Source: Spirulina sp. (GTDB lineage Bacteria; Cyanobacteriota; Cyanobacteriia; Phormidesmidales; Phormidesmidaceae). Taken from it: a DNA stretch of 39,977 nt. The notes beneath the pieces were generated by a model. The model was not told the DNA's origin. It did not search any database and worked only from the letters and a program-made list of their open reading frames with translations. Each line of letters begins with the position of its first letter. Positions within the stretch are counted from its first letter, which is position 1. The DNA is taken from the NCBI GenBank assembly GCA_044070495.1, contig JBIPSI010000041.1, positions 1 to 39,977 of the forward strand. Reading direction: 5' to 3'. A program made the position numbers and the translations under genes. This document shows positions 34,685 to 39,977 of the stretch, piece after piece.

Positions 34685-35143
34685 CTAGGCAGATCGCGCC
34701 ATGGCGAGAATCCGCTCCGCCACCGCATCGGCCACGGGCATCACCGACAGCCGATTGCCCCGCCGTACCACCCACAGGTCTTCGGGGGTAAAGGTGTCTT
34801 TTAGTTGGTCAAGGGTGATCCCAGTCGAAAAGGTCTCCACGTACCCCACGACCACCGTGTGCCAGCGGGGCTTGTCGGGCGAAGATTTGGGGTCATAGTA
34901 CTTGTGGGCCGGGTCGAACTGGGTGGGATCGACCACGTTGGCCTCGACAATTTTGGCCAGCCCCACAATGCCCGGTGGCTTGGTGTTGGAGTGGTAGAAA
35001 AAGGCCAGATCCCCCACCGCCATGCTGGTCAGGAAATTGCGGGCCTGGTAGTTGCGTACGCCATCCCACAGTTCCGTCTGGTCGCGGGCCAGATCGTGGA
35101 TGCCGTAGACATCGGGTTCAGACTTCATCAACCAGTAGGCCAT
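34685..35143 (-). CDS. EVE domain protein
   Basis: YWLMKSEP, WDGVRNYQARN, FFYHS and RGNRLSVMPV motifs. Confidence 0.96.
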   Translation of the reverse strand: MAYWLMKSEPDVYGIHDLARDQTELWDGVRNYQARNFLTSMAVGDLAFFYHSNTKPPGIVGLAKIVEANVVDPTQFDPAHKYYDPKSSPDKPRWHTVVVGYVETFSTGITLDQLKDTFTPEDLWVVRRGNRLSVMPVADAVAERILAMARSA

Positions 35144-35603
35144 GGCTTAGCAGCTTCTCCAACAGATCACGATGGGCAGAATTTTGGGTCGATAGGGTGA
35201 CTTTACGGCCACTGTTGTCGGCATAGGCAAGGGCAAGCCGAATCGCCTGGTCGGGAACCTTGGCCAGACGCTCGGCCCATTCAATCGCCACGATGCCGGG
35301 GGCGGTTTCCTGCTCGTCCCAATAGGCCTCTAGGTAAAGATCCATCACCTCTTCACCATCGAGCCGATATAGGTCAATATGGTACAAGGGTACTCTACCC
35401 TCCAGGTACTCATTCACCAGGGTAAAGGTCGGGCTGCTGATTGGATCAACGATCCCCAAGCCCAGCCCCAATCCCTGAATCAGCGTCGTTTTGCCACTGC
35501 CCAAATCCCCCGACAGCAGCAGAATCGTCCCCGCCGGAAGCACCCGCCCCAGCCCTTCCCCCAGCCGTTGGGTCGCCGCCGCATCGGGCAACTCAAGTTC
35601 CAT
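35118..35603 (-). CDS. tsaE: tRNA t6A biosynthesis ATPase TsaE
   Basis: GDLGSGKTT, SSPTFTLVNEY, YHIDLYRL and IEWAE. Start 35603-35627 uncertain. Confidence 0.96.
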   Translation of the reverse strand: MELELPDAAATQRLGEGLGRVLPAGTILLLSGDLGSGKTTLIQGLGLGLGIVDPISSPTFTLVNEYLEGRVPLYHIDLYRLDGEEVMDLYLEAYWDEQETAPGIVAIEWAERLAKVPDQAIRLALAYADNSGRKVTLSTQNSAHRDLLEKLLSHGLLVDEV

Positions 35604-35787
35604 CACCGCATCATCCATCCCGTTCAACCATCCATCCCCTAGGACTTTATCAGCGATACCAATAGCGATCTCGATTTATATTCTCGATTCATATCCAGAA
35701 CGCTCCAAATCCACAACCACGATCTACAACAGACAGAATAATCCCCACCGTCCCCTGATCACTGCCTGCCAACCCCCACTCCCGACG

Positions 35788-35851: not shown

Positions 35852-36454
35852 ATGATCATCACCGTAGCCAGCTTCAAAGGCGGTGTCGGCAAAACCACCA
35901 CAGCCATTCACCTCGCGGCCTTTTTGCAAAATCATGCCGAAACCCTGCTGATCGATGCCGACCCCAACCGTTCGGCCCTGGCCTGGGCCAATCGGGGAGT
36001 GCTACCCTTTGCGGTAACGGACGAGTGGCAGGCGGGGGGCTATCTACCCGATGAGGGCCATGTGGTGATTGACACCCCAGCCCGACCCGACCCGGAGGAC
36101 TTGGCCATGCTGGCGGAGGCGTGTGATTTGCTGGTGCTGCCCACTACGCCGGACGTGCTGTCGTTGGATGTGCTGGCCCTGATGGTGGCCTACCTGGAGC
36201 CGTTGGCGATCCAAAACTATCGCGTACTGCTGACTATGATGCCCCCCAGCCGTCGCATTGCCGCCGCCCTACAGCCCCTGCTAGAGTCGATTCAGCCCCG
36301 CATGTTTGACCACAGCATTCGACGCTATGCGGCCTACCAAAAGGCGGCGCAACAGGGGCAGGTGGTCTCTGTGGTGAAGGCGGCCAAGGCGGCGGACGCT
36401 TGGCAAGATTACGCCACCATCGGCCAGGAATTGCTGCTGAAGGTTGGGGTTTAA
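35852..36454 (+). CDS. parA: Short ParA-family ATPase (no N-terminal HTH)
   Basis: Deviant Walker A KGGVGKTT, IDADPN and VIDTP. Confidence 0.92.
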   Translation: MIITVASFKGGVGKTTTAIHLAAFLQNHAETLLIDADPNRSALAWANRGVLPFAVTDEWQAGGYLPDEGHVVIDTPARPDPEDLAMLAEACDLLVLPTTPDVLSLDVLALMVAYLEPLAIQNYRVLLTMMPPSRRIAAALQPLLESIQPRMFDHSIRRYAAYQKAAQQGQVVSVVKAAKAADAWQDYATIGQELLLKVGV

Positions 36455-36831: not shown

Positions 36832-37473
36832 ATGAAACTGAAACGCGGGACGGTGGTGTTGGTAGGGGTGGCCCTGTTGTTGGGGGCCGGAGTGTTGATG
36901 GGCGAATTGCGCCAGAGCCGTGCCCCAGAAAGCGCCACGGTGAGCGATGGGGTGGGGCCAGTGTTTACCTTTGCCGAAACCGATGTAGCCACGGTGACGG
37001 TAGAACGCGATGACGAAACGCTAACTTTTGAGGGCGATGGCGAGGGCAATTGGCAAATGACGGCCCCAGAAAATCTGGTGGCGGAACCGGGGGCGGTGGC
37101 CTTTTTGCTGAGCCGATTGAATACCGATTCCCCGCAGCAACGGGTGACCATGGCGGCGGATCAAATTCAGGACTTTGGCCTAGACCAGCCCCAGGGGAAA
37201 GTGACCGTGACCTTGCAGGACGGCACCGAGCACGTTCTGATTCTGGGTGGGCCAGACTTTAGCGGCAACGCCAACTACGCCATTGTCGATCCCGATGGCG
37301 CTTGGCCCCCAGAAAACCCCGCCGACGAATACGAGGTGCTGGTGGTAACCCGCGATGTGGCTAACGGCATCAATCGGCCCCTAGAGGAATGGAAAATGCC
37401 CGTGGACGCAGGTGAAGCCGAAGGGGAGGCTTCAGAGGCGGAGTCCCCAGAGGCGGAGTCCCCAGAACAGTAG
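36832..37473 (+). CDS. DUF4340-like membrane-anchored protein
   Basis: N-terminal TM, WQMTAPE, FGLDQPQ..VTVTL and LILGGPDF; SD AAGGAG; 15-bp EAESP repeats at the C-terminus. Confidence 0.8.
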   Translation: MKLKRGTVVLVGVALLLGAGVLMGELRQSRAPESATVSDGVGPVFTFAETDVATVTVERDDETLTFEGDGEGNWQMTAPENLVAEPGAVAFLLSRLNTDSPQQRVTMAADQIQDFGLDQPQGKVTVTLQDGTEHVLILGGPDFSGNANYAIVDPDGAWPPENPADEYEVLVVTRDVANGINRPLEEWKMPVDAGEAEGEASEAESPEAESPEQ

Positions 37474-37530
37474 CCCCGTAGGACACAGCCCACCATCCCG
37501 GCATTTCGCAGCACAGATAGCCGTCTCGAC

Positions 37531-38058
37531 CTATAGCTTTGTGGGACGGACAAAGCAGCGATCTCCCAAATCGTAGGACTGAAGTTCTGGACACTGGCTC
37601 GCCTTCACTTCCCGATATCCAAGGCGTTTCAAGAGACGAAGGCTCCGCTGATTCCTAGGATGCACAGTGGCCCACCAGTCGGTTCCCGGTGCGACGGTTG
37701 CTAGGTAATCGTGCCGCCAGAGCATCGCCTCGAAGGCTAACCCCTTTCCCCACCAAGCCTCGCCCAATAAATACGCTACTTCGCCCCAATCTCCGTATCC
37801 TGTCGCCTCAAGCCGACCAATCACTGGGGCAGGAGGGCTTTTTAGCCGTATGGCCATGTTGAACCATTGCTCGGTGGCGGCAACTAACCCTACAGGCCCT
37901 TGGGAGCGAGCGGCGTACTCTGCCCTCAATTCCTCGATAGTCGGTGGCCTGCCATCGGGGTCGATAAAGGCAATGACAGAGGGTGTAGTCAGAATAGTAA
38001 AGAGATCGTTGGCATGGGTGTCCGTGAGTGGTTCAAAATATAGGTTCTCACTCTGCAT
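37531..38058 (-). CDS. GNAT family N-acetyltransferase (RimJ/RimL-like)
   Basis: EVAYLLGEAWWGKGLAFEA (motif A) and VHPRNQRSLRLLKRLGY (motif B). Confidence 0.92.
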   Translation of the reverse strand: MQSENLYFEPLTDTHANDLFTILTTPSVIAFIDPDGRPPTIEELRAEYAARSQGPVGLVAATEQWFNMAIRLKSPPAPVIGRLEATGYGDWGEVAYLLGEAWWGKGLAFEAMLWRHDYLATVAPGTDWWATVHPRNQRSLRLLKRLGYREVKASQCPELQSYDLGDRCFVRPTKL

Positions 38059-38120
38059 AGGCTATTCTTTAGGCTATGGTGGCTGGCGCTTCTCGCCCCA
38101 TTGCACATAAGGATAGCCCC

Positions 38121-39293
38121 GTGGAGCCTCCCCGCTCGGCCAGATCACTCCCCCAGTTCAGCGCCCCCCCCGGCTATCGACCCCAAGCCGACGACACCAG
38201 CCTGGAAACGGATTTGCTGTGTTTTTATCTACTACGGCAAAAAACGGTAGCGGAACGGCTGGCTATGGGGGCACAGCTAATGCGTAGTGCTCGACAATTC
38301 TCACTCAACTGTTTTCATCAGCGCTTTGCCCATTTAAGCCCCCCCCAGTTTGCCCGTAAGATGGCCGAGGTTTGGCTGCAAGAGCATTGTCCAAAGCACT
38401 ATGTGCCTCAGGGTTCAGAAATGACGTGGATTCAAGACTCTATTCAATTAGCCGTAGACCTCCATAACATTCTTGAACAAGAGGGGATTCCTTACTATGT
38501 GACGGGTGGCGTCGCGGCCATTGCCTATGGCGAGACCCGCACCACGCAAGACTTAGACATTGTGCTGTCCATTCCTAGGGAGACTATACCAGCACTGGCT
38601 GAGGCTCTAGAACAGGCTGGTTTCTATGTGCCTGGGGTGGAGGATGTCGTCTCAAATCGTATGCGGACGCTACAAATTACCCAAGTGGCCACCATTTCAC
38701 GGGCTGATTTGGTGATTGCTGAGATGACCCCCTACGAAGCCCTCAAGTTTGAACGCCGTCAGGCCTACCAACTCATCCAGGGCCAATTCATTTACCTCGC
38801 CTCGCCTGAAGATGTGGTGGTCAATAAATTGCGCTGGGGCCAGCAAAGTCAATCCGAAAAACAGTGGCGTGATGTGTTGGGTGTGTTGAAAGCCCAGCAG
38901 GATGGATTGGACTACAACTACATGCACCAATGGGCAGCGGCGTTTGATTTATCGGAACAATTAGACCAGGTAACGCGGGAAGCCGGAGTAAGAACCATTG
39001 CCGACCACCAATGGGCCACGGCCCTCTACCCCACCATGCAACGAGCCTTTGAAATCGCCCAAAGCCGCCGCCGCACCCACCAACCCAACCCTGATACAGA
39101 AGTTGCGGAGGGCAGGCAATACACCCTAGTTCACCATCGTCGCGATCAGACCCTAACGGTCATCGGAAACATCGATGATCGCACCGTCTCCCAATTTGAT
39201 TCCCAAGGCCAAGTTATCCACGCCAGCCCCTCCCGCTATGACCGCCAACAATGGGCCATCATTGCCGGAAGGATTTTGCCTAAAACAGGCTAA
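38121..39293 (+). CDS. Nucleotidyltransferase (AbiEii/MenT-like Pol-beta fold) with fused N-terminal helical module and C-terminal extension
   Basis: YYVTGGVAAIAYGETRTTQDLDIV, ASPEDVVVNKLRW and SEKQWRDV. GTG 38121 has AAGGA upstream; ATG 38076 also possible. Confidence 0.85.
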   Translation: MEPPRSARSLPQFSAPPGYRPQADDTSLETDLLCFYLLRQKTVAERLAMGAQLMRSARQFSLNCFHQRFAHLSPPQFARKMAEVWLQEHCPKHYVPQGSEMTWIQDSIQLAVDLHNILEQEGIPYYVTGGVAAIAYGETRTTQDLDIVLSIPRETIPALAEALEQAGFYVPGVEDVVSNRMRTLQITQVATISRADLVIAEMTPYEALKFERRQAYQLIQGQFIYLASPEDVVVNKLRWGQQSQSEKQWRDVLGVLKAQQDGLDYNYMHQWAAAFDLSEQLDQVTREAGVRTIADHQWATALYPTMQRAFEIAQSRRRTHQPNPDTEVAEGRQYTLVHHRRDQTLTVIGNIDDRTVSQFDSQGQVIHASPSRYDRQQWAIIAGRILPKTG

Positions 39294-39394
39294 GTAGAAA
39301 AACGAACAAAATCCGTATAAGTTCTGTATAGCAAAAGCTCGTAGTGTACTAATTTCATAGCAGTCTCCCAAAATCATGCTTACCCAAACAATCC

Positions 39395-39835
39395 ATGAGT
39401 GAAGATAATCAGAGTAGCCAGGAAAATATTAGTGCTGAGAAAATATTGCTGATAGATCTAGAAAACTGCCCCGATCAGATTCATCAACTACAAAAAAGTT
39501 TGGAAGAGTTCTCCCAAGTCATCATTTGCTATGCCAGAACTGGGGCCAAAATACCCCTTGACTGGCTAGTTCCCCTTAGCGGAACCGTTAGCGCCAACAA
39601 ATTAAAAATATTCAAAATGGCCAATGGGGGCAAGAATGCGGCTGACTTTGGCCTTTGCTTTTTTGCAGGGGCTTTAATGCAGCAATTGTCTCCTGAAACC
39701 CATTTCGTCATCATCTCAAATGACACTGACCTCGACCACGTTGTTAGCTTGCTCCAAAGTCAGGGCCGCACAGCAGAGCGCGTAGGTAGTCAAAAAACTC
39801 AAACTCAGACAGTAATTAGTCACAGCGATAAGTGA
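39395..39835 (+). CDS. PIN/NYN (LabA-like, PIN7-type) domain protein, possibly C-terminally truncated
   Basis: LLIDLEN, GKNAADFGL and ISNDTDL acidic motifs. Confidence 0.85.
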   Translation: MSEDNQSSQENISAEKILLIDLENCPDQIHQLQKSLEEFSQVIICYARTGAKIPLDWLVPLSGTVSANKLKIFKMANGGKNAADFGLCFFAGALMQQLSPETHFVIISNDTDLDHVVSLLQSQGRTAERVGSQKTQTQTVISHSDK

Positions 39836-39906
39836 GGCTTAATGAGAAAGCCTCCAGAGCCGTAGGATTATCTAGGCAGAAGGGGAGGGGGCGAGCACCC
39901 TGAAGA

Positions 39907-39942
39907 GTCGATGAGCCCAAAGAGCTCATCGACGGCATTTTT
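39907..39942 (+). terminator. Strong hairpin: terminator or mobile-element subterminal palindrome
   Basis: GTCGATGAGC-N7-GCTCATCGAC perfect 10-bp stem, then GGCATTTTT. Confidence 0.5.
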
Positions 39943-39977
39943 ACCCTGACGGCGCATCGATTCGAGAAAACTGAACA

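Follow-up and report, generated by a model that had tools for sequence, protein, structure and literature searches.

In a 39,977-nucleotide stretch of DNA from the cyanobacterium Spirulina sp. (assembly GCA_044070495.1, contig JBIPSI010000041.1, positions 1 to 39,977 of the forward strand; hereinafter the window), a single gene at 38121..39293 encodes a three-part protein that is probably, on the strength of sequence comparisons and of analogy with the mycobacterial MenAT1 system, derived from a MenAT1-type toxin-antitoxin pair whose two genes have become one. Its middle part is a nucleotidyltransferase (NTase) domain whose closest structural relative is the toxin MenT1, and this is preceded by an antitoxin-like N-terminal module (N-module) and followed by an accessory domain. 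As judged by sequence comparison, the N-module and the NTase both have free-standing homologs, which occur as an adjacent gene pair. The single-chain family, known here from sequence, occurs widely but unevenly among cyanobacteria and has yet to receive a name. The parts of the protein referred to below are the following (VIA denotes a structure search independent of Foldseek; aa, amino acids):

38121..39293, forward strand: whole gene, 390 aa, with the probable start codon GTG at 38121 and the stop codon at 39291-39293
38157..38435, forward strand: N-module, residues about 13-105, delimited by profile searches, hhalign and the structural model
38172-38201, forward strand: extended conserved GYRPQAxDTS stretch
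38247-38387, forward strand: two long helices, residues 43-68 and 74-89, the part matching the MenA1/Rv0078B Pfam model
38421..38423, forward strand: internal methionine, residue 101, at most about 3 residues from the N-termini of the stand-alone NTases in split pairs
38430..38981, forward strand: MenT1-like NTase core, residues 104-287, from VIA, Foldseek and profile search
38505-38558, forward strand: motif I, G129-G130...R140-T141-T142-x-D144-x-D146, conserved residues
38826-38828, forward strand: codon of the invariant residue K236
38871-38873, forward strand: codon of the invariant residue D251
38985..39290, forward strand: C-terminal accessory domain, residues 289-390, with a long helix, a six-stranded β-meander and a helix

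A preliminary description of this DNA, made from the letters alone, had placed a three-part NTase at 38076..39293. A 405-codon open frame is indeed read from the window on the forward strand at these positions, and it contains the motif strings YRPQADDTSLETD...LRQKTVAERLAMG, GG..A..YG..R.T.DLD, SPEDVV..KL.W, SEKQWRD and AEGRQYTL...DRQQW. The three-part architecture is upheld by the structural model and by the homologs, but the start was probably set 45 nucleotides (nt) too far upstream. The closest relative (locus L001), whose protein is 93 % identical, has lost 1 nt between the codons that correspond to ATG 38076 and GTG 38121, so that its ATG is out of frame, whereas the GTG and all sequence 3' of it are conserved; as the sequence AAGGA also lies 7 nt 5' of GTG 38121, the gene most likely starts at this GTG and encodes 390 aa. 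A homolog of 390 aa (P0001) begins at the position of GTG 38121, and most of the aligned homologs start at its equivalent or shortly after. Residues are numbered here from GTG 38121, with 15 to be added for the numbering of the 405-aa frame. A full-length AlphaFold2 model, built with 74 homologs in the alignment, has a mean predicted local distance difference test score (pLDDT) of 92 and a predicted template modeling score of 0.88. It comprises an N-terminal extended stretch with helices at 28-39, 43-68 and 74-89, a middle α/β domain with a helical bundle (104-288), and a C-terminal region (291-385) of a helix, a six-strand meander and a further helix. On this model the three parts of the chain are real domains rather than products of chance.

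The affinities of the middle domain emerged consistently from structure searches. MenT1 (Rv0078A, 8an4_A) was recovered first by VIA with a Z-score of 15.3 and a root-mean-square deviation of 3.4 over 179 of 195 aligned residues (model residues 104..287), followed by 5uvd (Z 11.5), ANT(2'')-Ia (11.2), LnuA (11.1), AbiEi (6y8q, 10.4) and TglT (10.4), with MenT4 at Z 8.3. Foldseek, which the preliminary description had recommended as a check, likewise ranked MenT1 first for this segment (E 2.6e-7, template modeling score 0.69 on the target) and gave no match for the C-terminal domain. In profile comparisons the MenT1 chain was matched at E 4.2e-4 by the whole protein and at E 4.7e-6 by the NTase part, and the best match among solved structures was 5uvd (E 5.1e-7). 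The hidden Markov model (HMM) alignment sets the family signature R-T-T-x-D-x-D on R-F-T-R-D-V-D of MenT1. Residues F28, E35, F38, T39, R40 and D41, as named in PMC10435456, fit the numbering of the chain when shifted by one; by this alignment T142 is equivalent to T39 and D144 to D41 of MenT1. Across 74 sequences no variation is seen at T141, T142, K236 or D251, D144 and D146 are conserved in at least 90 %, and the GG...RTT-D-x-D signature and a third acidic residue, D196, are invariant or nearly so. The HMM envelope covers the K236/D251 region, and the corresponding stretch aligns to 5uvd. From sequence and model, the core is a MenT1-type minimal NTase that is predicted to be active.

The N-module had been likened to small proteins usually encoded as a separate gene upstream of such NTases, and profile searches supported this resemblance. 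A profile of 32 N-modules (A3), run against 1.84 billion representatives at E<=1e-3, matches 234 proteins, many of them free-standing, 80-115 aa long and covering profile positions ~10-85. Common to these free-standing proteins and the window protein are the opening G-Y-R-x-Q-x-x-D-T and a helix with the pattern L-R-x-x-x-P-x-E-(R/K)-L. In an hhalign comparison, A3 and a profile of the free-standing proteins (A4) are linked at 99.65 % (E 3.7e-25), and the free-standing proteins alone yield a profile that matches the window at 38172-38399 with E 8.2e-19. Fifteen of 49 free-standing relatives match, at E<=0.1 and over the same two helices, the Pfam family PF18993 ('Rv0078B-related antitoxin'), which is the MenA1 family, and one of the 15 passes the curated cutoff (29.4 vs 27.1 bits). 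Because neither A3 nor A4 matches the MenA1 chain itself, we term the module MenA1-like on these sequence grounds and do not claim its membership of the MenA1 family. Conservation is strong along the whole module and includes invariant Y, Q and D residues in the extended N-terminal stretch; the non-helical residues 11-30 score pLDDT 91-93 in the full-chain model, which suggests that they pack on the enzyme body. Seven short proteins that looked like close free-standing copies of the N-module were rejected, being fragments of the fused gene that are cut short or frameshifted.

Split relatives of the fused gene, for which the preliminary description had advised looking, were found at metagenome loci. 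With a free-standing protein of 84 aa (P0234) as the single query, 80 metagenome loci were gathered; named members of the P0234 cluster come from Anaerolineales and Desulfomonilaceae. At 57 of these loci the small gene is followed on its own strand by an open reading frame (ORF) of ~190 aa that begins immediately after it or within its final part, at 12 the downstream DNA is shorter than 600 nt, at 10 there is downstream room and no such gene, and at 1 no small ORF was called. The downstream ORFs of the 57 pairs match the cyanobacterial NTase profile over their whole length, typically at 1e-40 to 1e-50, and the pairs carry the window motifs YG..RTTQD.D, SPED..L.KL.W and S..QWRD.LGVLK. An overlap of 11 nt is the commonest arrangement (17 loci), and L151:2501-2764 with L151:2754-3329 is an example of a split pair. 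The small gene precedes the NTase gene in the pairs, just as in menA1-menT1 and in the fusion. A comparison by eye of the N-termini of split NTases (e.g. L151:2754-3329) with the window protein indicates that Met 38421 marks the old border between genes and domains, in keeping with the earlier suggestion that a complete NTase opens at this residue.

In a non-photosynthetic class of the same phylum, 10 short frames were examined, of which 3 are paired, 1 is an interrupted fusion and the others are orphans; a further genome search in this class gave no new loci. One family member (L082, G029:C1:162725-165949) has an IS605-type OrfB/TnpB inserted exactly at the domain junction, so that the element separates the N-module (profile positions 9-120) from the NTase part (120-291). 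A quick maximum-likelihood tree of NTase domains was computed from 90 rows (66 fused, 24 split) remaining from 175 after removal of near-duplicates. The fused/split label changes only 2 times on this tree, and 61 cyanobacterial fused rows cluster with a Shimodaira-Hasegawa-like approximate likelihood ratio test support of 99.

The fused family behaves as an accessory gene and is patchy in cyanobacteria. Among 8000 candidates scored, 577 proteins match at E<=1e-3; those that are named are all cyanobacterial and are annotated as 'hypothetical protein' or, rarely, 'nucleotidyltransferase'. The 120 matches listed fall into two length classes, of ~285 aa and ~380-400 aa, and the alignment shows the N-module and the NTase in both. 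A collection with one genome per species yielded 434 candidate stretches, 408 of which code for a relative. In a phylum-wide sample of 301 genomes, 49 match the whole-protein profile at E<=1e-10; they belong to 34 of 134 genera, and several copies in this sample have internal stops; the window's own genome has a single copy. A relative is also present in seven plasmid records, each time under a hypothetical label, and a tblastn search of plasmids with P0216 gave no match. Of metatranscriptomes, only one, consisting of contigs, shares 5 % of the sequence words. A fused MenAT1-type protein was not found in the literature searched, where the supplementary gene-neighborhood sheet of PMC10435456 may list fused homologs.

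The C-terminal domain, which had been called an unknown domain at the outset, continues to lack a recognizable family or fold. Modeled alone it reaches a pLDDT of 94; the best VIA match has Z 4.9, with none at or above 5 among 48,161 chains, the best Foldseek match has E 0.054, and searches for a Pfam family and for an Atlas match gave nothing. A polo-box-like fold was considered and set aside, its scores (Z 3.7-4.2, Foldseek E 0.3-0.5) lying within noise. The C-terminal 100 residues are confined to the ~380-400-aa class. Because the ~285-aa class, to which most family members belong, has no such domain, the C-terminal domain cannot be a family-wide sensor. A profile of the domain hits 1 of the 301 genomes of the phylum-wide sample (the window's own) and, in the window's order, 31 of 151 genomes, which all belong to a single family. 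The strong hits in the order are 380-430-aa frames of the NTase family, save three frames of 115-266 aa. Weaker hits lie at the C-terminus of ~1150-aa TrwC-relaxase/helicase proteins (Pfam TrwC, 1e-84; e.g. L135:963-4403), to whose tail hhalign links the domain at 92.4 % (E 5e-7, 63 columns); genomes of the window's genus encode several TrwC-type proteins with the domain apiece. Another of the weaker hits ends a 413-aa FolD-like protein (L137:915-2153) encoded beside ParA/ParB-like genes (96.5 %, E 9e-10, 89 columns against the FolD-like tail). By these sequence matches it is a portable module of plasmid and conjugation contexts, and its sharing with relaxases is a separate small lead. In the account that we favor it is a later, lineage-restricted add-on, and our guess is that it serves in protein-protein contact or targeting.

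These relationships allow a mechanism to be proposed along the lines of MenAT1. In PMC10435456, MenT1 is described as adding CMP to tRNA 3' ends, the substitutions D41A, K137A and D152A as abolishing its toxicity, and MenA1 as blocking it in a 2:1 MenT1:MenA1 complex; 15 of 21 menA1 genes are there reported upstream of a menT-like gene. According to PMC11375011, MenA1 induces auto-phosphorylation of T39 of MenT1. In the ancestry that we consider probable, an upstream MenA1-like gene and a downstream MenT1-like NTase gene would have fused with their original order kept. By analogy, the NTase would add nucleotides to tRNA 3' ends and so block charging, and the N-module would sit on it in cis and keep it off. 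The module might do so by occluding the substrate face, by directing T142 into an inactivating auto-phosphorylation, or by both routes, and the NTase activity would be set free once the module is removed or displaced, whether by proteolysis or by a trigger protein. A more elaborate version, which we regard as decidedly speculative, holds that these single-chain proteins act in immunity or addiction upon activation by a trigger, and that in them the covalently attached MenA1-like module silences a tRNA-end NTase (perhaps through auto-phosphorylation of T142 in cis) and the C-terminal domain couples the long forms to conjugative or mobilizable elements, either by sensing components of the relaxosome or coupling protein or by riding with them.

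A number of observations weigh against a MenAT1-type ancestry and mode of action. The assignment of the enzyme as AbiEii/MenT-like, made at the outset, holds for its MenT side, MenT1 being closest; the Pfam family AbiEii (PF08843), whose cutoff is 22.5 bits, reaches only 16.1 and 17.4, DUF6036 (PF19502; cutoff 23.6) scores 19 and 22.1 bits, and NTP_transf_5 also stays below its cutoff, while scans of the protein with PADLOC (0 families) and NCBIfam gave no match. The spacing of 15 residues between K236 and D251 equals that of K137 and D152 in MenT1, the two pairs being equated by this spacing only. The N-module of the window protein matches 0 Pfam families at E<=10, and at that same threshold the MenA1 chain of the solved complex is matched neither by A3 nor by A4; the link to MenA1 runs through intermediates, 14 of the 15 PF18993 matches being sub-threshold. 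The three pairs of the non-photosynthetic class, each from a different genome (L115:1926-2721, L116:815-1616 and L117:2494-3265, all on the reverse strand), have the reversed order, NTase before small gene, with 8-nt overlaps in two of them. A covalent fusion is bound to a 1:1 stoichiometry, whereas the MenT1:MenA1 complex described in PMC10435456 is 2:1. Small-molecule NTases, namely ANT(2'') and LnuA, stand among the structural neighbors, and the gene is single-copy among housekeeping genes in its source genome. Finally, toxicity, the tRNA target, cis-inhibition, auto-phosphorylation and a role in defense are features that we infer by analogy.

Some of these points would be accommodated if the protein were a domesticated enzyme, in which the former antitoxin has been frozen as a structural or substrate-binding domain and the NTase is constitutively regulated rather than a conditional toxin, with a housekeeping or niche role in RNA-end modification or in small-molecule nucleotidylation of the kind performed by ANT(2'') or Lnu. 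This is the main rival account, possible if unlikely. The strong conservation of the whole N-module, down to the invariant Y, Q and D of its N-terminal stretch, the proximity of ANT(2'')-Ia and LnuA in fold space, the ordinary flanking genes of the single-copy window gene and the mostly housekeeping neighbors of its homologs speak in its favor. However, the Z-score of MenT1 (15.3) stands well apart from the ~11 of the antibiotic NTases, and no sequence departs from the candidate phospho-acceptor T142 or from the K/D pair that characterizes MenT toxins. Moreover, a housekeeping enzyme would not be expected to occur in just 49 of 301 genomes and to have several copies in decay, and the split relatives show the classical overlapping layout of a two-gene toxin-antitoxin system.

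Improbable, in our view, is that the frame yields two products, the full chain and a free NTase initiated at Met 38421, and thereby retains the behavior of a classical two-protein toxin-antitoxin system. The methionine does lie within ~3 residues of the N-termini of stand-alone NTases, and 13 of 18 aligned homologs have a methionine at this or the next column. Nevertheless, only 9 of the 18 have it at the exact column, which makes conserved internal initiation unlikely, and 5 have none at either; a simple scan of 37400-39977 found no promoter-like site, and an NTase-only product would come without antitoxin in excess. The least probable account is that of a catalytically dead relic, retaining an NTase-like fold without activity as does the C-terminal domain of AbiEi antitoxins. 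AbiEi (6y8q, Z 10.4) is a structural neighbor, but the invariance or near-invariance of GG...RTT-D-x-D, D196, K236 and D251 across the 74 sequences argues for retained catalysis. Descent from a MenAT1-type pair, with the N-module serving as a covalently attached antitoxin, thus remains the interpretation that we favor.

The surroundings of the gene in the window are those of an ordinary chromosome, with genes for TsaE, an EVE-domain protein, ExbD, NblA, a Usp protein, a peroxiredoxin and a NUDIX protein. Its immediate neighbors are:

39395..39835, forward strand: PIN7/NYN protein of 146 aa (PF18475, E 4.9e-21), 100 nt 3' of the NTase gene
37531..38058, reverse strand: GNAT acetyltransferase (Acetyltransf_3, E 2.8e-17), divergent, 62 nt from the NTase start

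Both were considered as operon partners and rejected. The PIN7 protein was found by tblastn at 0 of the 80 homolog loci and, because of this absence, is probably encoded by an independent small nuclease gene; for the GNAT protein, the same search of the homolog loci recovered only a 36-aa remnant, in L001. Further upstream in the window lies an orphan ParA/MinD-like ATPase (CbiA, E 3e-14; 35852..36454, forward strand) followed by a DUF4340 protein (36832..37473, forward strand); a ParB was not noticed near 35852..36454, no dedicated search for one having been made. The gene of the EVE-domain protein (E 1.5e-52; 34685..35627, reverse strand) runs in the same direction as tsaE and shares ~26 nt with the end of that gene, and the arrangement of the two genes indicates that they may be co-transcribed.

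Across the 80 homolog loci, the 147 neighboring ORFs fall into 115 clusters, indicating that neighbors are not conserved. Most of the 130 that were scanned are housekeeping, and ~21 are of mobile or defense type, a figure that, without a genome-wide baseline, shows only that the surroundings are variable. These comprise Uma2 (6 cases), IS605 OrfB (2) and MobA/VirD2 relaxases (2), together with one or two each of DDE transposase, NERD, Cas1, caspase, HipA, YhcG, HNH, TIR, PriCT and DUF29 proteins. At two loci of Nodosilinea nodulosa PCC 7104 (L004:3663-4952 and L008:3720-4940), which are paralogous and lie on contigs of one genome, a MobA/VirD2-type relaxase is encoded directly upstream of a long-form NTase on the same strand. 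A relaxase is not a regular neighbor, as it is confined to these two loci and the upstream ORFs of 431 aa (L003) and 470 aa (L012) elsewhere are unrelated to it. At another locus (L028:5900-7183, forward strand) a CCA-adding-type tRNA nucleotidyltransferase (PolyA_pol + tRNA_NucTran2_2) lies directly 3' of a family member, a single case that may be due to chance.

MenT toxins are a studied model of the poisoning of tRNA ends, and how their antitoxins silence them is an active question. A natural covalent antitoxin-toxin version with split relatives would offer a ready means of testing cis-inhibition and what releases it, as well as a stable complex that suits structural studies. Many cyanobacterial 'hypothetical proteins', namely those of the 408 stretches in the one-genome-per-species collection, would thereby gain a name.

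Among known systems, MenAT1 of Mycobacterium tuberculosis (Rv0078B-Rv0078A; PDB: 8an4, 8an5, 8rr5) is the nearest parallel. The toxin folds are alike (Z 15.3), as are the phospho-acceptor threonine and catalytic aspartate of motif I and, judged by its spacing of 15 residues, the K...D pair; in both, the toxin follows a short helical partner in coding order, and relatives of the partner module of the fusion touch PF18993. The differences are equally clear: the window protein is one polypeptide where MenAT1 is two, its partner module has ~90 aa rather than 68 and bears in addition the conserved N-terminal GYRxQxxDT stretch, its NTase is 16 % identical to MenT1 and its module has no direct sequence match to MenA1, the window clade adds a C-terminal domain, and the host is a cyanobacterium. 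The AbiEii/DUF1814 toxins (AbiE, MenT3/TglT, MenT4) are likewise Pol-β-type NTases with the same four-motif logic, but they are larger (~290 aa) and pair with antitoxins of the COG5340/AbiEi type rather than with a small helical protein. The best profile match, the nucleotidyltransferase-like protein of Paracoccidioides brasiliensis (5uvd), is eukaryotic and has no antitoxin-like module. The uniting of a toxin and its inhibitor in one chain, where relatives have two genes, is familiar from class II and III Fic proteins, which carry an intramolecular inhibitory helix, from EzeT (PMC4826407) and from CapRel(SJ46) (PMC9712102). In EzeT the inhibitory part is N-terminal, as proposed here, and the target of CapRel toxSAS is the tRNA 3' end, again as proposed here. 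The enzyme families of these proteins are unrelated to the NTase, and for the window protein cis-inhibition and a trigger are proposals; if they hold, the family would bring an NTase to the few single-chain toxin-antitoxins on record.

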